A program made the translations under genes and the position numbers. A stretch of DNA of 18,421 nucleotides from Promethearchaeota archaeon (GTDB lineage Archaea > Asgardarchaeota > Lokiarchaeia > Sigyniarchaeales > SOKP01): assembly GCA_016930515.1 (NCBI GenBank), contig JAFGGO010000176.1, forward strand, positions 1-18,421, in the 5' to 3' direction. Position 1 is the first letter of the stretch, and the number at the start of each line of letters is the position of its first letter. The notes under the pieces were generated by a model. That model ran no database searches and had not been told where the DNA came from. It was given only the letters and a program-made list of their open reading frames with translations. Below, piece by piece: positions 253 to 18,421 of the stretch.

Positions 253-325
253 AATTACAAAATTTATATTGCTATACTTTTTTATATATTTACATCAATT
301 TTACAATTAATTTACGGGTTATAAC

Positions 326-589: not shown

Positions 590-624
590 TAAAAAAAAGA
601 TTATAAAAAAAAAACTTGTGAGAA

Positions 625-1302: not shown

Positions 1303-1427
1303 TGAAACAGTATTTTATTGTATTTTTAATGAAACCCCCCAGATTATTTTCGTATTGTAATTCGTTTCTAGCTTTTATATTTCTAAAGTAGAAGATTTAA
1401 GTTGTTTCCCCTCATTATAAACATACT

Positions 1428-2231
1428 ATGAAAATAGCCGTTTCTGGAAAGGGAGGTGTCGGAAAAACCTCGATTGCGGGGTCTCTAGCTCGATTGTTTG
1501 CTAAGGACGGTTTTAAAGTATTAGCTATAGATAATGATTCGGCCATGAATTTGAGTTATACTCTAGGTATAGATCCTAAAATCAAGGAAACGCTCGTGCC
1601 CATATCAGAAATGAAGAATCTCGTAAACGAGCGAGTGAGCGTTCCGGGAGCGCCTTCTGGAGTGTACAATATCACGCCAGAAGTATCAGACATTCCTGAC
1701 AAGTACAAGGTCGAAGGACCCGATGGTTTACAGCTTTTGGTCCTTGGAAGCATCGAAGAACCAGCAACGGGATGTCTCTGTCCTCAGAACGCCTTAATAC
1801 GAACGCTCTTATATAATCTTTTTGTAAAGCGCGACGAGGTTGTTGTGGTCGATTTCGAAGCGGGACTTGAACACTTAGGAAGAGGCACGGCCAAGGGAAT
1901 TGATGTAATGCTGGTAATTACTGAACCTTCACAAAAATCTCTGGATCTTTGTAAGAAGATCATTGACTTATCAAAGAAATTGGGGATTGTTAATATCTAC
2001 TTGATCGCAAATAAGGTTAACAGCAACGATCAATTAAGGATAGTTAACAATCGAATTCGAGATTGGGATGTTCCCCTTTTTCACTCCATTCCTTTTGATT
2101 CCAGCATTGGAGAAGCAGACTTGAGCGGATCATCTCCGTTAGATTACTGTCCAAACTCAAAAGCCGTGGAATCCATTAAAGATCTTTATTCTAAATTAAA
2201 AAGGTTGAAAAAAGAATTATTCGATCTCTAA
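1428..2231 (+). CDS. cooC: CooC/AcsF-family nickel-insertion ATPase (CO dehydrogenase/acetyl-CoA synthase maturation)
   Basis: Deviant Walker A GKGGVGKT, the Ni-binding CxC motif GCLCP, and DFEAGLEHLGRGTAKGID, all characteristic of CooC within the MinD/ParA (SIMIBI) class. Confidence 0.92.
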   Translation: MKIAVSGKGGVGKTSIAGSLARLFAKDGFKVLAIDNDSAMNLSYTLGIDPKIKETLVPISEMKNLVNERVSVPGAPSGVYNITPEVSDIPDKYKVEGPDGLQLLVLGSIEEPATGCLCPQNALIRTLLYNLFVKRDEVVVVDFEAGLEHLGRGTAKGIDVMLVITEPSQKSLDLCKKIIDLSKKLGIVNIYLIANKVNSNDQLRIVNNRIRDWDVPLFHSIPFDSSIGEADLSGSSPLDYCPNSKAVESIKDLYSKLKRLKKELFDL

Positions 2232-2340
2232 AGACATTATATTGATTGAATAAGAGACCGGTCAATTTATCTAATCTCAATTATATAATAAGATGTGATT
2301 TGGAATAATCGAGGATTATGATTTCAAAAGAAGTGTCTTT

Positions 2341-2589
2341 TTATATCACATCGGCAAGATCTAAATCTTGTTCATCTGCAATCTCCTTCCATTGGTCGAT
2401 TGCTTCAAGGGCTTCTTGCTCGTTCATTTGTTCAATTGCGTAACCAGCATGTATGATGACATATTTTCCAATTTCAGGATCTTGAATGAGCGCAATAACG
2501 ACTTCCTGCTTGATACCATCAAAATCAACCAATGCAGTTTTCTTCTCCTGATTTATTTTGAGAATTTTTCCGGGAATTGCAAGGCACAT
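2341..2589 (-). CDS. hypC: [NiFe]-hydrogenase maturation chaperone HypC/HupF
   Basis: N-terminal MCLAIPG with the conserved Cys2, ALVDFDG, and GKYVIIHAGYAI; 82 aa. Confidence 0.97.
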   Translation of the reverse strand: MCLAIPGKILKINQEKKTALVDFDGIKQEVVIALIQDPEIGKYVIIHAGYAIEQMNEQEALEAIDQWKEIADEQDLDLADVI

Positions 2590-2676
2590 GTTACTTTAGT
2601 TAAAAATTATTTCAATAAATAAAATAAAATTCGAATCCAATTAAAATTAATGATTAGATATAATGTCTTGAAAGAT

Positions 2677-3525
2677 TCAAGGAGAATAATAATCAATAAT
2701 ATCGTCTAAGGAGGAACATATAGCGTTTTTAGACAGAAATTCAACCCTTTCCTTGAGGCTTTTCAATTCTTTTAAAAGATGCTCGTACGCAGAAGAAAAT
2801 TCGGGAATTCTCAGCAAAAAATCGTTCGCCTTCGATATGAGAGATTTCATTTCGTATCCCTCTAAATCAATATCCTCGCGCCCATCAAGACCAGCGATAT
2901 TATTAACCAAGTTCTTAACCATTTCCTTAAGATTTCCTGAAAACCAAGATCCAATCGAATAATAACGATTTTCAGTGCCTTGTTTAATGGTAGGTTTTAA
3001 TTCAAGATATTTATTAACGGTTATAATCGATCTCAAGTTCTTATAAAGTCGAGAGGAGGTCCAATAATATACTTTTGGAGAAACATTATAATCTTCTCCC
3101 GTAAAGGAGAACATTAATTTATTAGTGTTTTCAAATTTACCAAAAGGTACAAATATAAAATCTACTTTAAAACCATCCTCCCAACTTTGTTCAGCATATA
3201 AGTTATTAAGGGCGTGAACCCGATCATTTGAATGCTTGAAAATATCAAATCGTATTTTGTTGTTCGATGGATTATAGATGTAAAATATCATCCCTTTAAA
3301 TCCAATCAATCCTAATTCTAGCGTAAAGTAGGTATATTTCAAGGTGTTCTTTTTTTTTTTAGAAAGATCTAAAAACACGATTTCTGCTCGAGAATCATTA
3401 ATGTTTTTAATTGCAATTTTCGAAAGCTGTTTTTTCTTGAAAGTCACGCGTACCAAAAAATGCGAGAAATTAACGAGGAATTTTGAAAACCATGGTGGAT
3501 CGTCTTCCAACTGATATGGAAACAT
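2677..3525 (-). CDS. Hypothetical protein (282 aa)
   Basis: A 282-codon ORF in very AT-rich DNA is unlikely by chance. No signal peptide, TM segment or recognisable motif. Confidence 0.75.
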   Translation of the reverse strand: MFPYQLEDDPPWFSKFLVNFSHFLVRVTFKKKQLSKIAIKNINDSRAEIVFLDLSKKKKNTLKYTYFTLELGLIGFKGMIFYIYNPSNNKIRFDIFKHSNDRVHALNNLYAEQSWEDGFKVDFIFVPFGKFENTNKLMFSFTGEDYNVSPKVYYWTSSRLYKNLRSIITVNKYLELKPTIKQGTENRYYSIGSWFSGNLKEMVKNLVNNIAGLDGREDIDLEGYEMKSLISKANDFLLRIPEFSSAYEHLLKELKSLKERVEFLSKNAICSSLDDIIDYYSP

Positions 3526-3694
3526 GAATTTAGCTCTTTTTATGGTTTTAAAAAACGAATTAGATTCTATTTAATTGGATTTAATTAATACAAATAAAAA
3601 AAAATCACATTCCTATATATATATTTTTACATCTCTGTAAAATTGTTGAAAATATTAAAAAATATGAGGTTGATTTAATGAATGTACTTTCACA

Positions 3695-4186
3695 CTAATT
3701 GAGAGGTTTTAAATCTCTACTCATCATTGAATAGATGCATTCACAATGTTCACTATGTTCACATTCTGGACACGCTCGTAATATATCCTCATCAGAAACC
3801 TCTAAAATGACGTTTAAATCTTCATAAAATCCTTCAAATAAAGAAGTGGTATTGTAGGCATTGATTAATTGAACTTGGTAATTTTTCAAGAAGGTATGGA
3901 GCGCAATATCTAATTTTTTCTTGTATAAGGAAGCGTCATCGTCAATTTCTATAATAAAGGATACTAAAATCGGATTTTTTTCGAAAATTAGTACCTTCAA
4001 GTTGCTCATTTCGATAGTTCTCACGCCATCTTGACCAATATTTTTAGAAAATAAATCTATTGCTTGAACAAAGCAACCTACTAATTCCTTACCCTCTTCG
4101 ATTTGCTCGCAAAACTGCTCGTAAACAGCTGAAAAAAGCGTTATACCGCTCGCAAGATGTATAACGGAAACCATTTTAATCGTCAA
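3695..4186 (-). CDS. Longin-like domain protein with C-terminal Cys/His-rich tail
   Basis: Longin beta-beta-alpha-beta-beta-beta-alpha-alpha pattern: MVSVIHLASGITLFS / LVGCFVQAIDLFSKNI / VRTIEMSNLKVLIFEKNPILVSFII / LDIALHTFLKNY / LFEGFYEDL. Tail CPECEHSEHCEC. GGGTGG lies just upstream of the TTG start. Confidence 0.75.
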   Translation of the reverse strand: MTIKMVSVIHLASGITLFSAVYEQFCEQIEEGKELVGCFVQAIDLFSKNIGQDGVRTIEMSNLKVLIFEKNPILVSFIIEIDDDASLYKKKLDIALHTFLKNYQVQLINAYNTTSLFEGFYEDLNVILEVSDEDILRACPECEHSEHCECIYSMMSRDLKPLN

Positions 4187-4862
4187 AAACCACCCGTATT
4201 AACTATTATCAAGCACTATATTATTTCAATGCGAAAATCGTGCCAAAGAACGCTAATTAGAATACTCTGTAAAATAAGTTAAATTTTTCGATCATAAAGT
4301 AATGATGAATTCTAAAAATTAATCGTATGAGATTAAGAACACGCTATTTGCTAGAATAAATCTTGAAATAATTATAGAATAGTTGGTAATAGTAGAAGCT
4401 TTTTTATTCCTCACAATAGGTGATTTAATAACCACATCAAAATCTTCTAAATAAAGATTATCGTATATAATATGATTGGTTTTATCATAATCGATATAAT
4501 GTTTGATTTGAATGTGTGTTTTTTTCTTTAATTGTTCTAGCAAATTTCTATATTAAATTGGATGTTTTAAGTTAATATTCTATCTCCAACAATTATTATA
4601 AATCTACTGATAATAAAAAATAAGAACAAAAGGAGCAAATCATTCTTCTTTTTTTGGAAAAAAAACAGAAAATCCCATAAAAACATTTAACTTTTCAAAG
4701 TTTTCGTGATTTTTCTGTGGAATAAAAGTTTTTATATAAGTCCTTTTATACCATATTTATATAAATTTATTAAAAAGAGCGCTCAAGAATAAAAATCTCA
4801 GATAAAATTCTTAAACTGGGCTATTTAACCAGTTTTATAATAGTAATTATATTAACTATCAT

Positions 4863-5057
4863 ATGGATCACGGAATTTCCCTTCACGCAAAATCAAGCAT
4901 TTGAAGCATCTCTTTTTCAAACTATATACCAACAATAATTGGTAGCACAGAAGGAGGAGGGGCCCCTGAATACGAGATCCACGCTCTTTTTGCAATAAAC
5001 ACCCTCTCGATCGTTTGTGTTATTTATGTCATTAAGCGCAATAAGTTTTTAAAATAA
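4863..5057 (+). pseudogene. Remnant of an IPGY/Loki-CTERM-type anchored surface protein gene (C-terminal sorting tail only)
   Basis: Manual translation from ATG 4863 gives MDHGISLHAKSSI*SISFSNYIPTIIGSTEGGGAPEYEIHALFAINTLSIVCVIYVIKRNKFLK*, with an in-frame TGA at 4902-4904. TEGGGAPEYE + hydrophobic + KRNK aligns with SEGGGIPGYE/TEGGGIPGYE + TM + KRKR in the downstream paralogues. Not in the ORF track. Confidence 0.7.
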
Positions 5058-5209
5058 TAATGTAAGAACAAACTCTAATTTTTTTAATAATATTTTGAAA
5101 TTTCTAATTATTGAAAAAGCAATCTAAAACTAATTCAAGGAGTCAAGAGAAATGTGGTTCCATTTTTGATTTCAATTAAGATTCTTGTATAAATCTTGGA
5201 ATGCGGGTT

Positions 5210-5224
5210 GAAAAACTTTAAATA
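5210..5224 (+). promoter_or_regulatory. Archaeal BRE/TATA promoter for surface protein 1
   Basis: GAAAAAC followed by TTTAAATA (5217-5224), about 50-65 nt upstream of the start. The AT-rich background limits certainty. Confidence 0.45.
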
Positions 5225-5288
5225 CAAATAACTACAATAAATGAAAATCAATAAAATTTAACAATACAATGTTAAGATGAGAACAATA

Positions 5289-6182
5289 ATGAATAAAAAA
5301 AGAACAATTTCAATGAGTTTAATCGTATTAATTAGTGTACTTTTTATAGCATCTTCTATTACCACCGTGCAAGCGGCACCTGGCGATCAAGGCGTCGATG
5401 TGATAACAGAAGGATCGATATACTATTTTGAAACCGTTTCCTCGGATTCATCGCGAACCAGGCGATATTGGGGGGGTTCAGAAACGCTTGAAAGTACATC
5501 TAGTGATACTTCAAGATCTGCCCATTCTTTAAACATTACCGAGGTAAACGCGACAGAGGGACGGATAAGATATAGAATAAGGACCAATGCTATTAGTGGT
5601 ATAGCTACTGCATATAACACGACTAAATGGGGCTATGCATTGATCTATGACGATGATGATAACGATAACCTGATGGAAAGTTTCACGTTTTTAGCAGACT
5701 CCTGGTCTATAATCGCTGGATCCTGGGAAAATTGGACAGAAAACATTGAAGATCTCCAACAAGATTTAGAAGACGCAAAAGCAGACGTGAGTTCGTTCGA
5801 TTACTCGTTGAACGTGAACGCTAATGGGCAAAAAGTAAGCTTAACCCTTGAATATCAGATGGAGGATATATTTTCATCGGGCACTCTAGGATCCGTGATA
5901 TACGACATGAAAGAGACATATTCAATGGACTATAACAACTTTGTCTTGAGCAGTAGGGAAGCGACCGAACAAAAATCGCTTAATACCATCGTAAACCAGG
6001 AATATATAGAAGACGAGAACGAAATAATCACAATAAGCTCTTCCTCACGAACATACACGGGACCAACAACATCCGAAGGGGGGGGAATTCCTGGATACGA
6101 GCTGTACGCTTTATTAACTATTAGCGCCGTTTCAATAATTGGTGTTGCTATTATTTTCAAACGCAAGAGAATGTCGATCTAA
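5289..6182 (+). CDS. Secreted surface (glyco)protein with IPGY-TM-basic (Loki-CTERM-like) sorting tail, paralogue 1
   Basis: Signal peptide MNKKRTIS...TTVQA/APGDQG; start placed at MNKK (5289) by analogy with the paralogues, alternative 5277. Many N-x-S/T sequons, acidic loop YDDDDNDNLME, C-terminus GGGIPGYELYALLTISAVSIIGVAIIFKRKR. Confidence 0.9.
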   Translation: MNKKRTISMSLIVLISVLFIASSITTVQAAPGDQGVDVITEGSIYYFETVSSDSSRTRRYWGGSETLESTSSDTSRSAHSLNITEVNATEGRIRYRIRTNAISGIATAYNTTKWGYALIYDDDDNDNLMESFTFLADSWSIIAGSWENWTENIEDLQQDLEDAKADVSSFDYSLNVNANGQKVSLTLEYQMEDIFSSGTLGSVIYDMKETYSMDYNNFVLSSREATEQKSLNTIVNQEYIEDENEIITISSSSRTYTGPTTSEGGGIPGYELYALLTISAVSIIGVAIIFKRKRMSI

Positions 6183-6216
6183 AATACATTAGAAAGAAAA
6201 AAATCTATTTTAATCA

Positions 6217-6232
6217 TTTTTTTTAATTTTTT
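6217..6232 (+). terminator. Oligo-T archaeal terminator after paralogue 1
   Basis: TTTTTTTTAATTTTTT about 35 nt after the stop. The same TTTTTTTAAT follows the remnant (5079-5088) and paralogue 3 (8540-8549). Confidence 0.5.
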
Positions 6233-6569
6233 ACTTGGTGATAATGATCTTTTATAAATTTACCCTTCAATCGAGAATACTATTTAATAGTTGATCATAC
6301 AATCGTGATTCGTGAATAAGTTATCTCATTACTTTCAAATTGTCAAAATTTCTTGATTTTCTCTTTCTTTTTCCATCAATAGTATTAACTTTAATTAAAG
6401 AATATTTACTCTAAATAACTAATCTAATTGTGAAATTACATCTAATAATAAAAAAATGATATTTTTAATTTCATCCAATAGACTGGTATTTGTGAGATAT
6501 AGCTTATAAGATATCATAAAAAAAGTTGCGTGAATAATTCTTCTTCCTTTTTTTAAAATAACAAGATGG

Positions 6570-6583
6570 CAAACCTTTATATG
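6570..6583 (+). promoter_or_regulatory. Archaeal BRE/TATA promoter for paralogues 2 and 3
   Basis: CAAACC followed by TTTATATG (6576-6583), about 75 nt upstream of ATG 6658. Confidence 0.4.
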
Positions 6584-6657
6584 CTTTTGAGAGATCAATA
6601 GAAATTAACTTAATCTAATCAATACAATAATCATTTATCTTATAAGTTGAAATCTCA

Positions 6658-7572
6658 ATGAATAAAAAAACGATATTATTAGTTGGATTAATCAGTTTGA
6701 TGAATGTATTCTTGCTTTCCTCTTCGGTACCTGTTGTTATTGCAGCCCCAGGAGATCAAGGGCTTGACATCGTGCAACAAGGAGATTATTACGAGTTTAC
6801 TACGACTATAACTTCAACATCAAAAGGTCAAAACTATAAAACTGGAGAAATTACCTCGTCCTCAATAATTGAGTCTGAGAGTATTTCTTTAAATATCACA
6901 TTAGTAAACAAGACTATGGGAATGATACAATATTACAATCAAGATTCTTATGATGGGGACTTTGAGGTTGTCTTAAATACTTCCATGCTGGGATATGATT
7001 TAAGTTATTACGACGAGGACGACGACGGTTTAGTGGAGCGTTATGATTTTCACTTGGATTTCGATTATAATAAAGTAATTGCTGGAACGTGGGAAAATTA
7101 TTTTGGTTTATCAAGCGCCTTCGTTATAGATCTGGAATACGCTAAAGGTAATCTGAGTGCTTTCGATTACTCGCTTGAAGTTGACGAAATAGTGCAAAAA
7201 ATCACTATAGAAGTTGAATATCAAGAGGAATATTACTATTGGTATTCATCATCTTCCATTTATAACGAATCGGTGGTCTACGATGTGAAACGTTCGTATG
7301 TACTTGAATACGATAATTTTGTGTTTAGTGGATTAGAATGGATTGGGCAATATTCAATCAATAGGATAGCAAACGCTACCTACTTGGAAGATAACGACGA
7401 AACAATCTTATATAGCAGTTATACTAGAAGTGTTACGACGAGAAAAGGAGCAGAAGGGGGAGCAATTCCAGGATACGATCTTTTTACCACGCTAGGATTG
7501 ACCATCATAGCTGTTTTTGGCCTTGTCTATTTATTCAAGCGTAAGAGATTACCGCTAGATTGTCACATATGA
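6658..7572 (+). CDS. Secreted surface (glyco)protein with IPGY-TM-basic tail, paralogue 2
   Basis: Signal peptide then AAPGDQGLD; DxDxDG loop DEDDDGLVE; sequons NIT, NKT, NTS, NLS, NES, NAT; tail GGAIPGYDLFTTLGLTIIAVFGLVYLFKRKR. Confidence 0.92.
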   Translation: MNKKTILLVGLISLMNVFLLSSSVPVVIAAPGDQGLDIVQQGDYYEFTTTITSTSKGQNYKTGEITSSSIIESESISLNITLVNKTMGMIQYYNQDSYDGDFEVVLNTSMLGYDLSYYDEDDDGLVERYDFHLDFDYNKVIAGTWENYFGLSSAFVIDLEYAKGNLSAFDYSLEVDEIVQKITIEVEYQEEYYYWYSSSSIYNESVVYDVKRSYVLEYDNFVFSGLEWIGQYSINRIANATYLEDNDETILYSSYTRSVTTRKGAEGGAIPGYDLFTTLGLTIIAVFGLVYLFKRKRLPLDCHI

Positions 7573-7607
7573 GTAAAAACATTATTTTAAAGGGTGTTAA
7601 AAATAAA

Positions 7608-8522
7608 ATGAATAAAAAATCGATATTAATGATTGTTTTCGTAAGTTTAGTGGGTATATTCTTGCTTTCCTCCTCAATTACTATCGTTCACGCAGCCCTA
7701 GGAGATCAAGGTCTTGATATCCTGCAACAAGGAGATTATTACGAATATGGCACGACAATAACTTCAACATCAAAAGGTCAAAACATAAGAACGGGAGAAA
7801 TTCATTCCTATTCAATGATCAATTCAGGAGAAACTAATGTAAATATCACATTAGTAAACAAAACCACGGGAATGGTGCAATATTATGCACAATCTTCTAG
7901 TGGAGGGTATCCGGGTGTTATTTTAAATACTTCAACATTGGAACTTTCTTTTGATTATGACGACGATGACGAGGACGGGTTAGTGGAACGCTATGATTTT
8001 GAGTTTGGTTTCGTACCAGGACATAGTCCTTCCGTTATAATTGCCGGAACGTGGGAAAATTATACAGCATCGTTATATTCAATTATATTAGAGTTGGAAT
8101 ACGCCAAAGGCAATCTAAGCGCTTTCGATTATTCGCTTGAAATTGACGACACTGAGCAAAAGATCTCTTTAGAAGTTGAATATCAAGAAGAATATTATTA
8201 TTGGCATGTGGATCATCCCATTTACAACGAATCCGTGGTTTACGATGTGAAGCGTTCGTGTGTATTAGACTACGATAACTTTGTAATTAGTCGACAAGAA
8301 CAGGTAACTCAATATTCAATCAACAGGATCGCAAACGCTAGCTATTTGGAAGACAATGACAAAACTATCATGCTTGAATCTTACTCTCAGGTGCTTGCAA
8401 CGAGAAAAGGAACAGAAGGGGGAGGAATTCCTGGATATGAACTTTTTACTCTCGTAGGGTTGACAACCACAGCCATTTTCGGTCTCGTTTATCTCGTCAA
8501 GCGTAAGAGAACATCGATGTAA
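7608..8522 (+). CDS. Secreted surface (glyco)protein with IPGY-TM-basic tail, paralogue 3
   Basis: Start revised from 7560 to ATG 7608 (MNKKSIL). This removes the overlap with paralogue 2, follows GGGTG at 7592-7596, and gives 304 aa like paralogue 2. Tail GGGIPGYELFTLVGLTTTAIFGLVYLVKRKR. Confidence 0.92.
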   Translation: MNKKSILMIVFVSLVGIFLLSSSITIVHAALGDQGLDILQQGDYYEYGTTITSTSKGQNIRTGEIHSYSMINSGETNVNITLVNKTTGMVQYYAQSSSGGYPGVILNTSTLELSFDYDDDDEDGLVERYDFEFGFVPGHSPSVIIAGTWENYTASLYSIILELEYAKGNLSAFDYSLEIDDTEQKISLEVEYQEEYYYWHVDHPIYNESVVYDVKRSCVLDYDNFVISRQEQVTQYSINRIANASYLEDNDKTIMLESYSQVLATRKGTEGGGIPGYELFTLVGLTTTAIFGLVYLVKRKRTSM

Positions 8523-8573
8523 AGAATATTAATAAAACTTTTTTTTAATATTATAACTTTCATATAATATATC

Positions 8574-8597
8574 TTCGTGAAACACAGATTTCACGAA
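8574..8597. repeat. Perfect 9-bp inverted repeat between convergent genes (hairpin or protein-binding site)
   Basis: TTCGTGAAA-cacaga-TTTCACGAA, downstream of the T8 tract at 8539-8546. Confidence 0.6.
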
Positions 8598-8659
8598 TAA
8601 TTTATCTATATTCGATTTAAGCTATATTTTAAACTTGCTTTTCCATATTTCATTCTGAT

Positions 8660-10612
8660 TTATATTAAATTGCTACCACAAGTCCAGCATTTTTCACTCT
8701 TTTCCTTTAGAGCGTTAGCGCAATTTAAGCAATAAAGTGCGTCGCAGTTGGGACAAATATAACTCGGACCAATAATGGGTCCTTTATGAACAATGCAGAT
8801 GAATTTTTGTTTTTCAACCCCAACTTCGGATTCTATATTATCGATTTCTCCCTTTATTTTCACAACAGGTTGGTTTGATATAGGAAGTGCTTTTATGGAA
8901 GATTTAGGTGTTTTTAATCCTTGTTTATGTAATAAAACAGGAAAGTCTGGGGATTTTAGTAAAGAAGTTTTTTTCCTTTTAATTACGAAAATTCCTATCG
9001 ATAAAAACAATACAATTCCAATAATTATCAATGTGATAATCACGATTTTCAAGGGAATATCTTGATCACTGCGACTATCTGGAGTCTCTGGAGTTTCAGG
9101 AATATCATTAATTTGAGTATTACGAACGAGGACTTGTTTTGTTAAAATTGAACTATTATGGTTGATATCGGTAACGATTAAAGTAATATCGAAATAACCT
9201 GAAATTTTAAATTGAAACTCAAACGATGGTGTATCCGCTAAATAAGTATCGTTATAGAACCACTCGTAAGTTAGCGGAGAATTACCTCCACTTCCATTGT
9301 AATTTAACATATACCATTGATCTATCACAAGCCTGTCCTCCGACACATTAAAAGCGTAATCCACTTCTGGAACGGAATCCATCAAAGGGTAATTATCTTG
9401 ATTTACCATAAAGTCGGAACTATTAGAGATATAATATGGACTCATGCCAATACCATTAGTATTGAAACTTCCCGAATAATCGTTCCAATAGTTACCAATA
9501 TTCATATAATCCCAATAGGTTGATGTTTTATTATCTTCGGCGTTTTTAGTATTTTTATAGAAAAAATTATTTGAAATAACATTTCTATCGCTATTATTGA
9601 GAATAAGTCCTACTAGCGCGTTAAAATAAATTAGGTTGTCGGTTATCGTGTTATCACTACATCCTTCAACATAAATTCCGTAATCTTGTAAAAGTGAGAA
9701 CTTGTTGCTAACATTATTGTAAAAAATTGAATTATAATTACAATTTCTTTCCAACCTAATACCCTCTATATGGTTATCGCAAGCATCGTTTACAGCGATA
9801 GTATTGTTGTTACAATCGTAATTCAATAAAATACCGGTAAAGTACATTGAGTGTACATCATTGTAAATTATATAATTTCGAATACATTGATATCGAATAT
9901 AAATTCCAATCTGTTGAGGGGTTTGATCTACCAAATTACTTATATTATTATATTCGATGATATTATCGTCACATTCGTAATCGAGAAAAATGCCATATAA
10001 AGAATTGGAACATATCTCGTTTCCTGAAATGTAATTGAAATCGCTATCATCGCAAAAATAAATACCGCTCATTGTATTGTTAATACAGATATTGTTCGAT
10101 ATTTCATTATCATTTGACAAGCCAAGGGCTACTCCCTGACCTGTATTGTTCACGCAAGTATTATTGAGTATTTGACCGTTTGATACACTTATAAGTTTAA
10201 TTCCTCCGTTGTAATACGGATAAGAACCACTGCTCGAATTGTAAAGCGTGCAGTTTCTCACGATAAAATGCGCGTTGGAATTTATAATTTCAATGCAACT
10301 ACTTGCGTTATTCCCGTTTATCTTCAGGTTTTCGATTACATATGGGTCGCTTTCCGTTCCCGAGCCGTTACACCACGGTTGAAGCACCGCCCAAGCCCAA
10401 TCACGGGAAGGATTAGTATCGTCGATAAATATTGGAGAAGCAGAATTATTATAGTAGGAGAGTTTAGTTGAGTTTTCTGTTAAGAATTTGTGAGAAAATT
10501 TTTTATTTGGCAATAAATTCAATGAAAGTGATAAAAAGAGAATATTAAATAAAAAAAAAATGAGCATAAATCTTTTTCTAAGAGCACAAAATTTATTTTT
10601 ATAAAAAGACAT
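8660..10612 (-). CDS. Single-pass membrane protein: NosD/right-handed beta-helix + PKD-like domain, TM helix, cytoplasmic RING-like Zn finger
   Basis: Hydrophobic N-terminus; GSGTESDPYVIENL then repeated N-x-I-x-x-N / GI-x-L beta-helix coils closing with GNYWNDY...DNYPL; PKD-like GNSPLTYEWF...GYFDITLIVTD; TM IVIITLIIIGIVLFLSIGIFVI then KRKK; C-terminal CIVH..CPNC..CLNC..CWTC. Confidence 0.9.
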   Translation of the reverse strand: MSFYKNKFCALRKRFMLIFFLFNILFLSLSLNLLPNKKFSHKFLTENSTKLSYYNNSASPIFIDDTNPSRDWAWAVLQPWCNGSGTESDPYVIENLKINGNNASSCIEIINSNAHFIVRNCTLYNSSSGSYPYYNGGIKLISVSNGQILNNTCVNNTGQGVALGLSNDNEISNNICINNTMSGIYFCDDSDFNYISGNEICSNSLYGIFLDYECDDNIIEYNNISNLVDQTPQQIGIYIRYQCIRNYIIYNDVHSMYFTGILLNYDCNNNTIAVNDACDNHIEGIRLERNCNYNSIFYNNVSNKFSLLQDYGIYVEGCSDNTITDNLIYFNALVGLILNNSDRNVISNNFFYKNTKNAEDNKTSTYWDYMNIGNYWNDYSGSFNTNGIGMSPYYISNSSDFMVNQDNYPLMDSVPEVDYAFNVSEDRLVIDQWYMLNYNGSGGNSPLTYEWFYNDTYLADTPSFEFQFKISGYFDITLIVTDINHNSSILTKQVLVRNTQINDIPETPETPDSRSDQDIPLKIVIITLIIIGIVLFLSIGIFVIKRKKTSLLKSPDFPVLLHKQGLKTPKSSIKALPISNQPVVKIKGEIDNIESEVGVEKQKFICIVHKGPIIGPSYICPNCDALYCLNCANALKEKSEKCWTCGSNLI

Positions 10613-10800
10613 GGCGAAATTTCAATTCTAGATTTATGTGATGAAGAATTAAATAAAATATACCTATGTAAATTTTATTATTTTAATGTTAGTAGGATCT
10701 ATTATAAGTATTTAAGTGATTCTGACTCTGTTTTAAAAAAACAACAGAATTCCTATTAAGGTAATTATAATAAATCCATCTAGAAATTAATATTAGCAAA

Positions 10801-10817
10801 GAAAAAATCTTTAATTT
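10801..10817 (+). promoter_or_regulatory. Possible BRE/TATA giving a leaderless hypE transcript
   Basis: GAAAAAATC-TTTAATTT ends about 20 nt before ATG 10837; no SD motif in between. Confidence 0.35.
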
Positions 10818-10836
10818 CCCCATCTTTGATATATTC

Positions 10837-11889
10837 ATGGAAGAAAAAAAAGCGAGCGAAAAAATCGTGCGCTTGGCTCACGGTGCTGGTGGCGTCTTAC
10901 AGGAAGAGCTCATTCAATTCATAACGAGTGGAATAGCACAAAAGAGAATTAGAAACGGAATCGGCGTTGAGGAGCTAGACGATGGCGCAACCATACCTCT
11001 GGAAGATTACGATAAGGAGGTTGTAGTTACGGCTGATGGACATACCGTATATCCGCTTTTCTTTCCAGGTGGCGACTTGGGCAAATTAAGCGTGTGTGGC
11101 ACTGTTAACGATTTACTCATGATGGGCGCCGAACCTATCGCTTTAACATCAATCGTAATCATTGAGGAAGGTTTTTCTTTCGAAAATCTGAAAAAAATCA
11201 TAAATTCGTTTAACGAAACCGCTCGAGAGGCAGGTGTGGCGATCATAGCGGGAGATTCTAAAGTCATGCCTCGTGGTACTTTAAACGAAATTATCATGGC
11301 TACCACAGGAATCGGTATCAAGAACAAGAATGTAAAAATTGAGGATAAAAACCTCAAGATCGGGGATAAAATAATCATAACAGGCTCAATTGGTGATCAT
11401 GGTACGGCGTTAATGGCATCGAGGGAGGGATTAAACATCAATACGGATCTCACCTCAGATGTTTCAATCCTGACCGAGCTTAACGAGGCGATAAAGCGGT
11501 TCATTCTTAATAACGATATTCACGCCATGAAAGATCCGACAAGAGGAGGTATAGCATCGGCTTTAAACGATTGGGCACGGAAATCAAATACAAGCATCCT
11601 TATCGAAGAAGTAGAAGTACCCATCAAAAAACAGGTAAATGCTATTTGCGACATGCTAGGACTCGATCCGTACAACATTGCAAGCGAAGGGAGGGCATTA
11701 CTTTCCGTCGATCCAAATCGAGCAGAACAAATCCTCGAAAAAATAAAAGAAACATCGATTGGAAGAGGTGCACGGATAATTGGTACGGTCCAAGCTGACA
11801 ATCCTGGACGAGTATTTTTGAAAACCTCAGTTGGTGGAACCCGCTTCATTGACACTCCCTTAGGGGAACCAATTCCTCGAATTTGTTAA
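10837..11889 (+). CDS. hypE: Hydrogenase maturation carbamoyl dehydratase HypE
   Basis: LAHGAGG, DDGA, LFFPGGDLGKLSVCGTVND, GDSKV, MKDPTRGG, ASEG and the diagnostic C-terminal PRIC. Confidence 0.98.
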   Translation: MEEKKASEKIVRLAHGAGGVLQEELIQFITSGIAQKRIRNGIGVEELDDGATIPLEDYDKEVVVTADGHTVYPLFFPGGDLGKLSVCGTVNDLLMMGAEPIALTSIVIIEEGFSFENLKKIINSFNETAREAGVAIIAGDSKVMPRGTLNEIIMATTGIGIKNKNVKIEDKNLKIGDKIIITGSIGDHGTALMASREGLNINTDLTSDVSILTELNEAIKRFILNNDIHAMKDPTRGGIASALNDWARKSNTSILIEEVEVPIKKQVNAICDMLGLDPYNIASEGRALLSVDPNRAEQILEKIKETSIGRGARIIGTVQADNPGRVFLKTSVGGTRFIDTPLGEPIPRIC

Positions 11890-11941
11890 TAAAACGCTTA
11901 AAATAAGCATATTTAGTATCAAGATTAAAATTGAAAAATAA

Positions 11942-13033
11942 ATGAATGTTCCTGGAACTAATTTTTTAAGAAGCAAGGAATTTACGGATAAGATCGTAAA
12001 AGAAATAAACCAAATCATTGAAGAGATTGGAAAACCCGTAAAGTTCATGCACGTGTGCGGAACTCACGAACACACCATTTCAAAATATGGATTAAGAACG
12101 ATTTTACCCAAACAAGTCGAGATAGTTTCGGGACCGGGCTGTCCCGTGTGCATTTGTCCCGCAGCTGACATCGACAAGGCGGTTGAACTTGGTAAGCGTA
12201 AGGACATGATTATTGCCACATTTGGCGACATGATACGGGTGCCAGCAACTAATATTTCGCTTGCCGAACTCAAGGCTAAAGGTGCAGACATTCGAATAAC
12301 TTACGGCCCACACGACGCCGTTAGGTTAGCTCGAGAGAATCCAAGCAAGGAGGTCGTCTTTTTTGCGATTGGTTTTGAAACTACCGTTCCAACGGTAGGT
12401 TTCGAACTCAAAAACGACCCCCCTCCCAACTTCTCGATCATTTGCGCCCACAAGCTCATTCCCGCTGCTTTAGAGCTTCTTATTAGCCAGTCACAGCTGA
12501 ATATCAACGGTTTTATCTCTCCCGGACATGTTGCAACGATCATCGGATTAGAGCCGTTTAAGATATTTTCAGATGCTTATCATGTACCAAATGTTGTTGC
12601 GGGTTTTGAACCCAACGATGTTCTTTTAAGCATATTAATGCTTTTAAAACAAAAGCGCGATAAAAAGCACGAAACTCTAAATGAATATTCACGCGTTGTT
12701 AAAACCGAAGGAAATATAATCGCACAACAAATAATTGATGAGGTATTTGAACCCGTTTCCTCTCCATGGAGGGGTATCGGAAGGATTCTTGATGGGGGTC
12801 TACAAATAAGAAAAGAATTCGAACAATTTGATGCTGAGAAAAAATTTGATATTAAGATCGAAAAATCAAAAGACATCCCCCCTGGATGTTCTTGCCATCT
12901 CGTAATGATTGGGAAGTTAAGTCCTAGTGAATGTAGCTTGTTTAGAAAGACCTGTACTCCTGTAAATCCCATTGGGCCGTGTATGGTTTCGCAGGAGGGC
13001 ACATGTAGCATTCATTATAAATATAATAAATAA
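11942..13033 (+). CDS. hypD: Hydrogenase maturation scaffold HypD
   Basis: MHVCGTHE, GPGCPVC, GFETT, PGHVA and C-terminal Fe-S cysteines ending in GPCMVSQEGTC. Confidence 0.98.
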   Translation: MNVPGTNFLRSKEFTDKIVKEINQIIEEIGKPVKFMHVCGTHEHTISKYGLRTILPKQVEIVSGPGCPVCICPAADIDKAVELGKRKDMIIATFGDMIRVPATNISLAELKAKGADIRITYGPHDAVRLARENPSKEVVFFAIGFETTVPTVGFELKNDPPPNFSIICAHKLIPAALELLISQSQLNINGFISPGHVATIIGLEPFKIFSDAYHVPNVVAGFEPNDVLLSILMLLKQKRDKKHETLNEYSRVVKTEGNIIAQQIIDEVFEPVSSPWRGIGRILDGGLQIRKEFEQFDAEKKFDIKIEKSKDIPPGCSCHLVMIGKLSPSECSLFRKTCTPVNPIGPCMVSQEGTCSIHYKYNK

Positions 13034-13079
13034 ATTAACGAATATATTAAAAAAAGATTAGAATAATTAGAAGAATACT

Positions 13080-13670
13080 ATGTTTGAAAAAATTCCTTCT
13101 GAAATAATTGATAGAATGAAAGAACTCGAAGAAATAGACCAAATTGATCGAATAAATGGAACTCCCGTTTTAAAACGCTTAAGACAAATACCTTCTGAGA
13201 CTGGAAAATTTTTAGCCATTCAAGCAGCTCTCGCACCAGAAGGTAAATTTATCGAAATCGGTACCAGTGCAGGGTATTCTTCTCTATGGATTGGTCTTGC
13301 TTGCTTGGAAAGAGGTAATTCGCTAATCACATTTGAACTATTGGAAGAAAAAATTGAAATCGCAGTACAAACATTTCAGAAGACCAACATGGAGAAAATA
13401 ATCAATTTAGTTCATGGAGACGCTCGTAAGTTCCTCCCAGAGCATAATAATATTAGTTTTTGCTTTTTAGATGCAGAAAAAGAAGTATATTACGATTTAT
13501 ATGATATGATCGTCCCGAAGTTAGTCAAGGGAGGCATTTTAATCGCAGATAATGCAATAAGTCACGAAAAGGCGCTGCGACCAACGATACAAAAGGCATT
13601 TCAAGACATACGAATCGATGCCGTCGTGGTTCCAATAGGAACAGGCGAATTACTCTGTAGAAAAATATGA
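13080..13670 (+). CDS. Cation-dependent class I SAM O-methyltransferase (CCoAOMT/YrrM-like)
   Basis: IEIGTSAGYS (motif I), GDA, FLDAEK and GGILIADN. Confidence 0.9.
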   Translation: MFEKIPSEIIDRMKELEEIDQIDRINGTPVLKRLRQIPSETGKFLAIQAALAPEGKFIEIGTSAGYSSLWIGLACLERGNSLITFELLEEKIEIAVQTFQKTNMEKIINLVHGDARKFLPEHNNISFCFLDAEKEVYYDLYDMIVPKLVKGGILIADNAISHEKALRPTIQKAFQDIRIDAVVVPIGTGELLCRKI

Positions 13671-13775
13671 TACTATTGAAAGATCTAAAAATTAATAAAA
13701 GGTAGTTTAATCCTACTTAATTTAGATTTTTAATCTAATAAAATTAAAGTTTTTTGAAACCTTATCTCCTAAGAT

Positions 13776-14441
13776 ATGAATTACGATCGAAATCTCATTG
13801 AAAATCAATATCTTGCAATTCTTGCGGAATTTCCAAAGGCAATAACTATAGATAACACTATTTATCACTTAAAAATACCCATTCAGTCAAAAAGCTTTAT
13901 TGAGGTCGATTTTAGGAACTATCCAAAAAAACCAAAACTCCACTTGATTAATTCAACGGGAGAAACATTCAGAAAAATGGATCAAGCCATTTCGTCTTTA
14001 GGGTCATGGAAGACAAAGAACTTCCCTAATGTAGTAAATGTCATAAGAGAAATATTCATCAAGCTATCAAGAAAAGGAATCGTTATTAAAAACGAGTTAT
14101 TACAAGGTATTTTAGCTCTATGTCGAGAGCATCATCCTGAAGAATTTTTGGGACTTTTACGAGTTGAGAATGACATCGTAACAGAATTTATTTTACCACC
14201 TGGCGCTCTCACTTCAAAAACTTCGGGTGTATTTTTTCCCCATAAGATTCCACTCGATTTGACGCTCCAAGGAACGATACATTCACATCCAACGGGGAAT
14301 CCATATCCCTCTAATCAAGATTTAAATGGGATATTCAAATCAATGCGATTTAACTTCATCGTGGGTCATCCGTACGAACTGTGGAATGTAAAATGTTTTG
14401 ATAGAAACGGGAAAGAGCTGGAATTTGAAACAATCTTGTAA
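13776..14441 (+). CDS. JAMM/MPN+ (JAB) metallo-isopeptidase with N-terminal UBC/UEV/RWD-like domain
   Basis: Complete JAMM motif E123...H169-S-H171-x7-S179-x2-D182 (HPEEF...HSHPTGNPYPSNQD), closely resembling archaeal AfJAMM-type proteins. Extra ~100-aa N-domain with VDFRNYPKKP and SLGSW...VVNVIREI. Confidence 0.9.
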   Translation: MNYDRNLIENQYLAILAEFPKAITIDNTIYHLKIPIQSKSFIEVDFRNYPKKPKLHLINSTGETFRKMDQAISSLGSWKTKNFPNVVNVIREIFIKLSRKGIVIKNELLQGILALCREHHPEEFLGLLRVENDIVTEFILPPGALTSKTSGVFFPHKIPLDLTLQGTIHSHPTGNPYPSNQDLNGIFKSMRFNFIVGHPYELWNVKCFDRNGKELEFETIL

Positions 14442-14491
14442 GAAAAAAGACAAATAGGATTGTTGAAGTGGATTAAATCGAATATTGCCAT

Positions 14492-16678
14492 TTACAGGCT
14501 TGATTTACCATCAAATTTTTGTGCCGAAGTACTTTTTTTTATTTGTTTTCGCGCCACAACCACGGTAGAACCAGAAACCAACGCAATTCCTATAATCACG
14601 CCCCCAACGAGATAATAAGCGATAGGGATCGGAACGGTAATCTCAAGGGCATGAGTATAAATTATCGTGTTATTGGCGTAATCCCGCGTAAATAATACGA
14701 ATTGGTAAGAACCAGGAGTTAATTTTCCGAGATCGAATTCGTGCGAGGTTGCATTTTCAAGAATCCCGTTTTTGGATATAATGTAAGCATTTCGATTTAT
14801 TAAAAGCATGGCGCTTTCAATGCCTGATCCATTATCAATCGCGGTTGCGTTCAAGCATAAATCTTGAAATGTTGAAAGAGAAAAATGATTGCACGTGAAA
14901 TCGATAATTTCAGGAGTTGCATTATCTGCAATCGTTGTGAATGAGAAATAGGACGGCACGAGATTGTGTCCCGTGATGGTCACGTTGTAAATTTCGTTAG
15001 ATTTTGGGTACGCCCTGAAGATGGCAACTCCGTTTTCGTCTGCGTAAACCGTTCCATATTTTCCATCGTCGGTTGTGAGGTGAACCCTAGCGTAAGGAAC
15101 AAGTTCTCCTCTATCGTTGCGAATGGTTATCGAAACGAGCTGTCCCTCGGTAACATTTTTTAGGAAGGGATTAGAAGCATAAGAAGGCGTATCCGTATGA
15201 ATATCTACCTCGGGGTCACCTAACAAGCAATAAGTGAGCACGTTCTTGCGCTGATATTGCTGATACATGGAAGTATCTCCTCGAGTAAACACATCTGATG
15301 TCATGTAAGCAACCTTAGAGTCGTATAAGGTCCTTCCTTGTTGAAATTTATAGTCTTCGAAAAACACCTCCCAAAACAACTTGGCGTTTGCCCTGTTGGC
15401 AATTTCGAAGTCGAGGTCGTCTAATACATAATAGGTTACCCTAAGACCGCCTACATAGCCTATAGCGCCAGAAGAATCCAACTTAATCAAGGTTTCTCCA
15501 ATGTTATTATCTTGAGAATCCAAATCGTAAATTGACGTGGTACAAGCGTCGGCATACACTAAAGATGGCATGAAATCGTTTGATGCTGATCCCGCCTGCG
15601 CACTAGTATAAATTCCACTAAGCGTTGCCCCATCGTATGCTGTAGGTCTCCCATGACCGGCGAACAGGACTGTGGAGTAGCCCCTGTTAAATTCCGAAGC
15701 AAAATCAGAATTAGACGTGATTTCTGACACGTTATCCGGAAAATTTACTTGAGTAGTCACATCGAAAGAAGTATTTCGGTACAAGTGAGTGAAATTCATT
15801 TCGAGATCAACGTAATTCTTCCAGATATACTCGGTCAAACGAGCCTCGTCCTCACCGTCTCCGTATTCGTCGTCAGGGTCCGTGCCAACCCTATCAGAAA
15901 TCACCCCTGCGAGAAGCATCCTGTTCATCCATTCGCCCACAACGGGATTTGCCTCGTATTGGATGGTTTTATTTACCATGAGGCCTAATTCAATCGAATT
16001 TCCCGCAGGGAGGCGCCCCACGTATACCTCTGGGATCCAATCGATCTCGTCCACACCATAAGCGTTGTATTTAGAAGATTCTCCGTAGATTCCGTCTCCA
16101 TCCTCGTCCCAAGTACCCGTAAGATCGGCGTAATAATAATCAGTTGGTTTATAAATAGGATCGCCGTAAGATTCGTCCGCAATTCCGTGATCTCTTTCAG
16201 CAGGGTTGTGAACATATCGAATGGGAATCAAGTTGTCTTGCGCGTCTCCGGCTAACAATACCCATCGAATGTGAAAACTTTCGTAAAACTCCTTGATCAT
16301 GTTTCGGATCTTTTCTGGTTTATCCCTTCCCTCGTAAAGCGACCAATTATTGAGAATTATCGTTTTAACTCCTTTTTGGTTTTTCCACTCTTTCAATGGT
16401 TCAAGAGCGTTTATAAATGAAGGAATGTTAGGGGAAACGATTATCATTTCGATGTCGTGATGGTACCAAGTGGCGTTAAGTTCAGTAAAATCGTATTCTG
16501 GTATGAAAGGAGGGTTAAAATCATCTATAAGACCTACTCCCGAAACACTCAAGCTTGATAAATCTAACCTTGATCGATACTGTGAAGATAAACTGAAAGC
16601 AGATAATCCCGTAATTGATCCTAATACCATTAAAATCAATAGGGCACAAATTAAACTCCTTCGAAAGTACATTTTCAT
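14492..16678 (-). CDS. Membrane-anchored extracellular C25 (gingipain-family, clan CD) cysteine peptidase
   Basis: Signal peptide; WVLLAGD, PTDYYYADL, PEVYVGRLP, catalytic His in FAGHG, catalytic Cys in ADAC, GAIGYVG, LLGDP; Ig-like C-terminal domains; TM IAYYLVGGVIIGIALVSGSTVVVA then RKQIKK. Confidence 0.93.
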   Translation of the reverse strand: MKMYFRRSLICALLILMVLGSITGLSAFSLSSQYRSRLDLSSLSVSGVGLIDDFNPPFIPEYDFTELNATWYHHDIEMIIVSPNIPSFINALEPLKEWKNQKGVKTIILNNWSLYEGRDKPEKIRNMIKEFYESFHIRWVLLAGDAQDNLIPIRYVHNPAERDHGIADESYGDPIYKPTDYYYADLTGTWDEDGDGIYGESSKYNAYGVDEIDWIPEVYVGRLPAGNSIELGLMVNKTIQYEANPVVGEWMNRMLLAGVISDRVGTDPDDEYGDGEDEARLTEYIWKNYVDLEMNFTHLYRNTSFDVTTQVNFPDNVSEITSNSDFASEFNRGYSTVLFAGHGRPTAYDGATLSGIYTSAQAGSASNDFMPSLVYADACTTSIYDLDSQDNNIGETLIKLDSSGAIGYVGGLRVTYYVLDDLDFEIANRANAKLFWEVFFEDYKFQQGRTLYDSKVAYMTSDVFTRGDTSMYQQYQRKNVLTYCLLGDPEVDIHTDTPSYASNPFLKNVTEGQLVSITIRNDRGELVPYARVHLTTDDGKYGTVYADENGVAIFRAYPKSNEIYNVTITGHNLVPSYFSFTTIADNATPEIIDFTCNHFSLSTFQDLCLNATAIDNGSGIESAMLLINRNAYIISKNGILENATSHEFDLGKLTPGSYQFVLFTRDYANNTIIYTHALEITVPIPIAYYLVGGVIIGIALVSGSTVVVARKQIKKSTSAQKFDGKSSL

Positions 16679-16896
16679 TTAAAATGACCGTTTGAAGTAT
16701 TATTATATATATTAATGTTATTTAACTAATATCAAATTAAGCTTTTTTCCAGATAAGCCATTTAATATTGTTAATTAAACTATATAAGATGTTCGTATTA
16801 AATAAAATAAATATTATTCACTTAAATTAATAAGAAAGAATAAAATTTTAAATTTAAAATTAGGATCTATTTAAAGCTAAATTAAAAATTAAGGAA

Positions 16897-17550
16897 TTAA
16901 CTTATTTCCACATGTTCGCCAGTGACCATATAGTGTATTTTTTCCGCCATTTTACAGGCGTGATCGCCGCAACGTTCTAAATATCGAGCGACCATCAGGT
17001 AATGAGCGTATGTTGTAATGAATTTAGGATTTTCCATCATAATTGCCACGCATTCTCTAAAAATTGACCAGCGAAGCTCGTCTACTTCGTTATCTCTCGC
17101 TTCTAAGTCTTTTATGTCTTGAATTTGACTTTTATCAAAAGCGACCAGTACCTTTGTTATCATTATCTGTACATGCTCCCACATGTGTTTTAAATTCACT
17201 GGAACTTCGGGTGAGGGAATTTTTGCTAATTCTTCTACAACTTTCGCAATATCTTTTCCATATCGTCCGATTCTTGTTAAATAGGTTATGATTTTAAGTA
17301 TGGTCGCAACTCTCCTTAAATCCTTGGCCATTGGATGATAGAGAGTTAGAAGATGAAGGCTTCTATTTTCGATATCCTCGTCGTATTCGCGTATTTTAGA
17401 TTTTCTCTTTTCAATTGATTTTGCAAGTTTTAAATCTTTTGAAATTAACGCATTCATAGAATCTCCTAACATTTCAAGCGCTAAATTTCCCATTGAGAGA
17501 ACATCTTTTTTTAAAACTCTTATATCATCGTGCATTTTTTCTGTCGCCAA
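16897..17550 (-). CDS. phoU: Phosphate signalling complex protein PhoU
   Basis: Two PhoU repeats (PMAKDLR...LTRIGRY; VARYLERCGDHACKMAEKIHYMVTGE), directly downstream of pstB. TTG start supported by an SD motif. Confidence 0.96.
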   Translation of the reverse strand: MATEKMHDDIRVLKKDVLSMGNLALEMLGDSMNALISKDLKLAKSIEKRKSKIREYDEDIENRSLHLLTLYHPMAKDLRRVATILKIITYLTRIGRYGKDIAKVVEELAKIPSPEVPVNLKHMWEHVQIMITKVLVAFDKSQIQDIKDLEARDNEVDELRWSIFRECVAIMMENPKFITTYAHYLMVARYLERCGDHACKMAEKIHYMVTGEHVEIS

Positions 17551-17556
17551 TTATAT

Positions 17557-17563
17557 TCACCTT
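17557..17563 (-). promoter_or_regulatory. Shine-Dalgarno site (AAGGTGA) for phoU
   Basis: Minus strand AAGGTGA-ATATAA-TTG in the 19-nt pstB-phoU gap. Confidence 0.7.
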
Positions 17564-17569
17564 AAAAAT

Positions 17570-18367: not shown

Positions 18368-18421
18368 ATTATCACCCATACTAAATTCTTCATTTTTTTT
18401 TTTTGTTTTAAAAACCATTTA

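Follow-up and report, generated by a model that had tools for sequence, protein, structure and literature searches.

A transmembrane surface protein with a RING-like cytoplasmic zinc finger in a Lokiarchaeial genome, and linkage of its relatives to a ubiquitin-like conjugation cassette

We analysed a stretch of 18,421 nucleotides from a Promethearchaeota archaeon of the Lokiarchaeia (contig JAFGGO010000176.1 of assembly GCA_016930515.1, positions 1 to 18,421), hereafter the window, in which a minus-strand open reading frame at 8660-10612, stop-free on translation, encodes a surface protein of 650 amino acids that ends in a zinc finger. The finger has a predicted RING fold and belongs to a family with 22 intact copies in this genome, and relatives in sister genera lie next to the genes of a ubiquitin-like conjugation cassette. 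We hypothesize, with a probability of about 0.5, that the tail of the window protein docks an E2 conjugating enzyme charged with a ubiquitin-like protein (E2~Ubl) and acts as a membrane-anchored ligase.

The finger family and its predicted fold

The ligand spacing that the initial annotation had given for the last 47 residues is exact: the translation and a regular expression matching at residues 606-645 both yield C606-x2-H609-x10-C620-x2-C623-x4-C628-x2-C631-x10-C642-x2-C645. The finger is part of a larger conserved module:

8663..8833, minus strand: conserved 57-residue module, residues 594-650 (alignment A1, column conservation, AlphaFold2, Foldseek, PDB profile matches)

Within the module an acidic-hydrophobic E-S-E-phi-x-phi motif is followed by the CHC6 finger itself (ligands at nucleotides 8678-8797) and by a five-residue tail with one conserved hydrophobic residue. 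The finger consensus reads C-[IV]-V-H-[KR]-G-P-[IV]-x-G-x2,3-[YF]-x-C-P-x-C-x3-Y-C-x2-C-A-x2-L-K-x-K-G-E-x-C-W-x-C. Not one of the eight ligands varies among the 22 own-genome paralogs or among 152 finger copies aligned from the 150 best representatives of a protein library (see below), a ligand pattern that, judged from the sequences, is far beyond chance.

The conserved 57-residue unit of the own-genome paralogs was aligned (A1) and used as a profile. A six-frame search of the 4.0-Mb assembly found 22 intact finger copies plus a few fragments, and the hidden Markov model scores are bimodal, with 23 open reading frames at E<1e-22, then a few fragments and then noise. Nearly all 22 paralogs consist of an N-terminal hydrophobic segment, a large ectodomain, one transmembrane segment and the finger, the last two being about 50-190 residues apart (mostly 75-110). 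Fifteen of them, the window gene included, end 5-9 residues (mostly 5-6) past the finger, while the other seven carry a helical extension of about 90-115 further residues; we refer to these as the short and long classes. The ectodomains vary from paralog to paralog and include NosD/beta-helix domains with PKD repeats, Big_7, SBBP beta-propeller repeats, TSP3, CARDB and TPR. Six finger-family genes or fragments are found within 9 kb at G000:C157:22269-31242 (G000 being the genome of the window), and some members of this cluster lack an ATG upstream of the transmembrane segment, so that they could be pseudogenes or be translated from a different start codon. At G000:C48:44154-44621 (minus strand) lie the tandem genes of two small soluble proteins, 69 and 83 residues long, whose C4C4 finger is a distant relative of the family's (E 1.9e-9 and 0.006 against the A1 profile), a possible outgroup for the receptor tails.

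A profile search of a library of 1.84 billion cluster representatives returned 1132 proteins at E<=1e-3, 543 of them at E<=1e-10. In the 150 best representatives the first ligand pair is always CxxH, the finger lies within 10 residues of the protein end in 92, and a transmembrane segment precedes it in 110 (median distance to the finger 83 residues), the remainder being mostly short fragments. Of 301 genomes sampled over the phylum, 68 belong to the same GTDB family as the window and 54 of these have a profile match, whereas the 233 genomes from 29 other families have none (E<=1e-5). A query with the single finger found four loci, from metagenome-assembled genomes named Promethearchaeota and, for one, Odinarchaeota. 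This distribution and the divergence of the members mark a fast-diverging, lineage-specific paralog family. The initial annotation had suggested that fingers with CxVHKG form a modular family shared by numerous membrane proteins of Lokiarchaeia, and the 22 paralogs, the 54 genomes and the varied ectodomains bear this out. Literature searches returned papers on soluble Asgard RING E3 ligases and on eukaryotic transmembrane RING ligases, none describing this finger family. Named members are annotated merely as 'NosD' or 'PKD domain-containing protein [Promethearchaeota archaeon]'; public annotation covers the ectodomain only and the family is therefore invisible to annotation-based surveys.

AlphaFold2 models the A1 unit at a predicted local distance difference test score (pLDDT) of 88.5 overall and above 94 for residues 11-57, with strands at 24-26 and 33-35 and a helix at 36-44 between ligand pairs 3 and 4. 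The E-S-E-phi-x-phi motif, 95-100 % conserved, is modelled at a pLDDT of only 56. When this model is compared to the PDB with Foldseek, the matches are almost only RING domains (TRAF3, Bmi1/Ring1B, TRIM37, TRIM21, RNF125, RBBP6, gp78, HRD1, RNF213), with some ZZ and PHD fingers. Probabilities are 0.97-1.0 and TM-scores 0.55-0.69; with a query of 57 residues weak E-values are to be expected, and they are 0.01-0.2. Several matches (Bmi1, TRIM21, gp78, Lassa virus Z) superpose with a root-mean-square deviation of 1.8-2.0 A over 45-47 columns. A sequence profile search of the PDB finds the RINGs of Mdm2/MdmX, p44, RBBP6 and RNF4 at E 0.005-0.06, the alignments to p44 and RBBP6 covering nearly the whole finger. 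A helix rather than a hairpin between pairs 3 and 4 implies the RING/treble-clef order, since independent ribbons would have a hairpin there. The models suggest that the finger is a RING-fold domain, most likely with cross-brace zinc pairing, that forms a new sequence family, in agreement with the single RING-like domain, rather than two ribbons, of the initial annotation. FYVE-like lipid binding was considered and rejected: the WxxD and RRHHCR motifs are absent and weak FYVE_2 matches occur in only 4 of the 22 members.

The more specific label of a p44/Ssl1-type finger, also proposed initially, finds weak support. Ligand spacing is almost identical to that of the C4C4 RING of TFIIH p44/Ssl1 (Pfam C1_4, PF07975; PDB 1z60, 5o85), and C1_4 is the top Pfam match of the window copy, but at 17.0 bits against a cut-off of 28.9. 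Eight of the 22 paralogs match C1_4 at E<=0.1 (best 8.6e-4). The PDB profile match to p44 (E 0.0095) is no better than those to Mdm2 or RBBP6. Unlike p44, the window protein has CxxH as its first pair and is a membrane protein, and Pfam finds in it neither a vWA domain nor the central finger. The p44 RING binds p34 rather than an E2. Other sub-threshold matches of the window copy are to an ANCHR-like B-box and, weakly, to RING, IBR, DZR and zinc-ribbon families; across the 22 paralogs the commonest are B-box, C1_4 and RING types.

Ubiquitin-like conjugation loci and finger genes

The genome of the window encodes three E2 genes above the Pfam cut-off (C187:7422-7964, C26:2275-2802 and C71:26523-26933) and several ubiquitin-like genes. 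One locus is a classical ubiquitin operon (G000:C26:290-6972) with a multi-transmembrane protein that ends in a different RING-like finger, a JAB protease, an E2, an E1 and two Ubls of about 120 residues. A second cassette (G000:C187:4994-8518; locus L066, 994-4519) consists of a GTPase-like protein, JAB, a ThiF-type E1, an E2 and a convergent Ubl. Its E2 (C187:7422-7964) is divergent, with the HPN motif and the catalytic cysteine intact. The GTPase-like protein of the cassette has a P-loop, an N-terminus that is roadblock/longin-like by eye, and weak Pfam matches to Roc and AAA only. The cassette Ubl is the product of a convergent gene of 84-88 codons ending in GG, GGY or GGF; its sub-threshold matches are to ubiquitin and, closest, to the SUMO-like Rad60-SLD. 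In the own genome (C187:8261-8518) it is 85 residues long, ends in GGY and is missed by PF00240, and the gene on its far side encodes a CxxCxxCC-domain protein.

In four of five sister genomes compared position by position, the divergent E2 lies within about 2 kb of finger-family genes. Among 30 loci of this E2 drawn from the family, a finger open reading frame is found within 1.5 kb of the cassette E2 in 15 (genera g2, g5 and g7), compared to about 0.4 expected from finger density. These 15 loci share ancestry, and the number therefore reflects conserved synteny rather than 15 independent events. From one to four polytopic membrane RING genes flank the cassette in sister genera. In the loci inspected the Ubl gene lies between the E2 and the finger gene, which reads towards the Ubl on the same strand (L061, L072). 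The cassette-adjacent finger proteins that we examined are polytopic, with about 350 residues and 3-6 predicted transmembrane segments; they match A1 at E 1e-12 to 1e-16 and have CxxC as the first pair. In one genome, G317, a soluble coiled-coil protein occupies this position beside the Ubl, and its finger is of the window's CxxH/ESE subtype, as marked by ESEM-x-I, CIVHRGPIVG, CPNC, YYC and CWSC.

A further connection lies within the own genome. The helical extension of the long paralogs is homologous (BLASTP E 9e-9) to the middle domain of a 282-residue transmembrane-helical-Ubl fusion encoded in the C26 operon. The same operon holds a gene of about 230 codons from a family of 215-230-residue proteins that, on clustering of neighbours within 4 kb, adjoins the long paralogs (as the gene directly after each) and one short paralog on contig C32.

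Taken together, the finger family shows conserved linkage to the E1/E2/Ubl/JAB cassette, with the CxxH subtype linked once. Relatives of the finger take the place of an E3 in this cassette, which lends genomic support to the ubiquitin-ligase-like output that the initial annotation had proposed as a possibility. New here are the cassette linkage of finger-ended membrane proteins in sister genera, the GG-ended Ubl and the CxxH finger of G317.

E2 docking and other roles for the finger

Canonical RINGs make contact with the E2 at three points: ligands 1 and 2 enclose a hydrophobic residue, the central helix supplies another, and the third is the residue that follows ligand 7. By ligand register alone, we take the finger columns C1+2, C6+4 and C7+1 to correspond to I383, W408 and P417 of c-Cbl. 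Over the 152 aligned copies these columns are V in 94 %, L in 96 % and W in 98 %, respectively. They are the best-conserved residues other than the ligands and are equally conserved in the polytopic relatives.

In our reading the carbohydrate-binding-type beta-helix and the PKD domain face outward with one transmembrane helix as their anchor, and the flexible lysine-rich linker holds a RING-fold binuclear zinc finger in the cytoplasm. This finger would be an E2-docking (E3-like) module that brings the charged E2~Ubl of the organism's own conjugation systems to the membrane, and the protein, as a receptor-type or membrane-anchored ligase, may tag itself or neighbouring membrane proteins. The architecture, the family, the predicted fold and the cassette linkage of relatives are shown by the analysis; that an E2 is bound and a Ubl transferred, which substrates are tagged and whether the ectodomain exerts control are what we infer. 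The E2-docking reading is preferred because of the predicted RING fold, the residues in the E2 register, the cassette context of the relatives, the subtype of the G317 finger, the cassettes of the own genome, the link through the helical extension, and the precedent of an Asgard E1-E2-RING E3 cascade that is functional in vitro with a soluble Helarchaeial RING (bioRxiv 10.1101/2023.07.25.550441). It is conceivable, and we put it forward tentatively and at somewhat less than even odds, that one Loki-type Asgard family independently built receptor-type transmembrane Ubl ligases: dozens per genome, with interchangeable glycan- or ligand-binding ectodomains, one RING tail, a dedicated E1/E2/JAB set and a SUMO-like GG-ended Ubl, with which the ESE-phi-x-phi motif ahead of the RING may interact in the manner of a SUMO-interacting motif.

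Several observations weigh against a ligase. The finger passes no Pfam cut-off, the best RING scores being 12-17 bits (zf-RING_5 12.5, zf-C3HC4_4 11.7, zf-C3HC4_3 up to about 17) against cut-offs of 27-30, and its cross-brace zinc pairing is read from secondary structure and fold matches of a zinc-free AlphaFold2 model. The basic allosteric linchpin (usually R or K) that follows the last ligand in many active RINGs is not conserved: column 53 is E, G, N, D and K in 24, 21, 19, 18 and 5 % of copies, and the window protein has G646 there. Neither an E2 nor a ubiquitin gene adjoins the window finger gene, and none of the 22 own-genome finger genes is on a contig where Pfam detects an E2 or ubiquitin gene. 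Within the own genus, the three cassette loci L067-L069 have no finger within 1.5 kb of the E2, and most cassette-linked relatives elsewhere differ from the window protein in their first pair (CxxC instead of CxxH) and in their membrane part, which is polytopic. Finally, the TFIIH p44 RING fold and many B-boxes serve as mere protein-binding modules.

One explanation for these observations is that the finger has a RING fold with no ligase role and is an interaction or self-association module that clusters surface proteins or ties them to a cytoplasmic partner, in analogy to B-boxes or to the p44 RING binding the vWA domain of p34. The missing linchpin and the absence of an E2 or ubiquitin gene near the window gene would fit such a module, as would the middle spacer between ligand pairs 2 and 3, which at four residues is of the p44/PHD/B-box type compared to two or three in classical RINGs. 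The best sub-threshold Pfam families, the ANCHR-like B-box (16 of 22 members) and C1_4 (8 of 22), point the same way, and the same genome encodes separate vWA-RING proteins (C111, 23155-24201). Nevertheless, conserved adjacency to E1, E2, Ubl and JAB in three genera is unexpected for a plain scaffold, and the hydrophobic residues of the E2-contact register are kept at 94-98 %. We consider this explanation, the main rival, rather unlikely. Two zinc ribbons, formed independently by pairs 1+2 and 3+4 and binding nucleic acid or merely stabilising the tail, are far less plausible still and we consider them highly improbable. Weak Pfam matches to DZR and Zn_ribbon_3 do cover the last two pairs (E 0.06-0.07), but DZR (PF12773) scores 14 bits against a cut-off of 27.3, the one compact domain that AlphaFold2 gives has a helix instead of a hairpin in the stretch from pair 3 to pair 4, and by fold it matches cross-brace domains of RING, ZZ and PHD type; on these grounds the double zinc ribbon was rejected.

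Alternatively, the tail may be a sorting or turnover handle, in which the finger or the ESE-phi-x-phi strand is recognised by a Ubl, by the endosomal sorting machinery (ESCRT) or by cytoskeletal factors, and the surface protein is cargo or substrate instead of ligase. The high conservation of that motif, combined with its low model confidence, is what a linear docking motif would display; the cassette Ubl is closest, below threshold, to a SUMO-like family, and the juxtamembrane linker is rich in lysine. Yet a two-zinc RING-fold domain of 45 residues exceeds the needs of a linear signal and a binding partner was not found. Moreover, dimeric RINGs have dimerisation strands, and the ESE motif could equally be one. 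We regard the handle as improbable, and keep E2 docking by a membrane-anchored ligase as the preferred reading.

The surface protein, its gene and comparable systems

The features of the gene other than the finger module are as follows.

8660..10612, minus strand: whole gene, 650 amino acids plus stop (monocistronic; hypE at 10837 divergent, gene ending at 8522 convergent)
10514..10600, minus strand: N-terminal signal anchor or signal peptide, residues 5-33, preceded by K/R residues (hydrophobicity peak 16-34; AlphaFold2 helix 5-33)
9383..10444, minus strand: right-handed parallel beta-helix of NosD/CASH type, residues ~57-410 (Pfam, NCBIfam, AlphaFold2, Foldseek)
9122..9358, minus strand: PKD/Ig-like beta-sandwich, residues 419-497 (AlphaFold2 strands, Foldseek, sub-threshold Pfam)
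8969..9121, minus strand: disordered stalk 498-521, transmembrane helix 522-544 and KRKK stop-transfer 545-548 (Kyte-Doolittle, AlphaFold2)
8834..8968, minus strand: lysine-rich low-complexity cytoplasmic linker, residues 549-593, predicted disordered (pLDDT)

Translation, Pfam, AlphaFold2 and Foldseek agree with the order of parts described in the initial annotation, from a beta-helix/PKD ectodomain through one transmembrane segment, KRKK and a linker to a cytoplasmic finger. Pfam NosD (E 1.3e-25) and Beta_helix (E 3.1e-18) cover residues ~91-381, NCBIfam finds para_beta_helix (parallel beta-helix) repeats, and the full-length AlphaFold2 model (mean pLDDT 80.6) places residues 57-410 above 90. 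The beta-helix resembles NosD (7osf/7o0y, TM-score 0.61-0.62 on target), the alginate epimerases AlgG/AlgE, phage tailspikes and polysaccharide lyases. The sandwich at 419-497 resembles the PKD domains of collagenase ColG and of PrtV (TM-score ~0.83 on target), and Pfam PKD_4 matches residues 443-487 below threshold (E 0.011). The transmembrane segment has a Kyte-Doolittle peak of 3.2 at 523-541 and is modelled as a helix at 522-549; KRKK is followed by about 57 residues to the finger, of which the stretch from 547 to 587 has a pLDDT below 50. The ectodomain holds 19 N-x-S/T sequons for N-glycosylation compared to 11.0 +/- 2.7 in shuffled sequences and the tail holds none. The N-terminal part is therefore most likely extracellular and glycosylated and the cysteine-rich finger, as first proposed, cytoplasmic. 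None of the 150 best library representatives has a transmembrane segment downstream of the finger. The protein is probably a type I, N-glycosylated surface protein.

The public gene call (P0022) is 617 amino acids long and apparently starts at an internal TTG (codon 34), which would drop the signal anchor in the 10514-10612 region. This start is doubtful because the N-terminal signal anchor common to all paralogs, where the same hydrophobic segment is present, would be lost; the true start is more likely the ATG at 10612 or an ATG at codon 16, either of which fits the paralogs better. No close orthologue of the whole 650-residue protein was found, the closest full-length homologues being only 31-35 % identical. 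When open reading frames within 4 kb of all 22 paralogs were clustered, no recurrent neighbour was found for the short class, to which the window gene belongs.

Downstream of the gene and convergent on it, three tandem paralogous secreted proteins of about 300 residues (5277-8522, plus strand) have no significant Pfam match; their tail, GG-IPGY-TM-KRKR, looks like a sorting signal of the archaeosortase type. On the other side are hypE-like (AIR synthase-related domains) and, by eye, hypD-like genes (10837-13033), and a CooC/MinD-type ATPase gene (1428-2231) flanks the region; these show no evident tie to the finger gene. A 221-residue protein (13776-14441, plus strand) has an intact JAMM/MPN+ domain (Prok-JAB; AfJAMM 1oi0, E 4e-18) behind an N-terminal domain of about 100 residues with a YPKKPK motif reminiscent of E2/UEV/RWD folds. 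Its gene is 3.2 kb from the finger gene on the opposite strand, with hypE, hypD and an O-methyltransferase gene between them. A 728-residue surface protein (14492-16678, minus strand) combines peptidase C25 (gingipain-type, E 3.6e-51), a CarboxypepD_reg-like domain and a C-terminal transmembrane anchor.

The closest layout is that of eukaryotic receptor-type transmembrane RING E3s (RNF43/ZNRF3; PA-TM-RING proteins such as RNF13/GRAIL; reviewed in PMC4021871 and PMC12458338), which likewise combine an extracellular ligand-binding domain, a single transmembrane segment, a disordered linker and a cytoplasmic RING-fold finger; the present organism, too, has E1, E2, ubiquitin-like and JAB genes. 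In contrast, the ectodomain here is a NosD-type beta-helix with PKD instead of a PA domain, the CHC6 finger with its middle spacer of four residues is neither RING-H2 nor RING-HC, no Pfam RING model passed, and the ligase role is a prediction. Since, in the genomes searched, the finger family does not occur outside one Asgard family, the likeness to RNF43/ZNRF3 that was drawn initially is one of layout and not of descent, and the receptor-RING layout looks independently assembled in Asgard archaea.

Archaeal ubiquitin operons (Caldiarchaeum, Asgard) encode small soluble RING E3s, which are comparable as archaeal RING-fold fingers tied genomically to E1, E2, Ubl and JAB, here through the sister-genus cassette. 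Those proteins are short and soluble, whereas the finger studied here forms the tail of large surface receptors or of polytopic membrane proteins; the linked cassette also contains a GTPase-like gene and the divergent GG-ended Ubl. Archaeal NosD/PKD surface proteins (such as the Methanosarcina surface-layer protein whose PKD region is PDB 1l0q) share the ectodomain composition, richness in sequons and C-terminal anchor, but they stop at the anchor, whereas in this family a conserved zinc finger follows in the cytoplasm.

Eukaryotes down-regulate receptors and carry out ESCRT sorting on the basis of ubiquitin-type tagging at membranes, and Asgard archaea, their closest known prokaryotic relatives, already have genes for ubiquitin, E1, E2, soluble RING and ESCRT proteins. 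The tail described here, together with the E2 and the Ubl, provides a concrete and testable set of proteins for a coupling of conjugation to the cell surface. If the hypothesis is true, membrane-anchored receptor-type ligases would not be a eukaryotic invention, and a prokaryote would possess outside-in signalling by protein conjugation.

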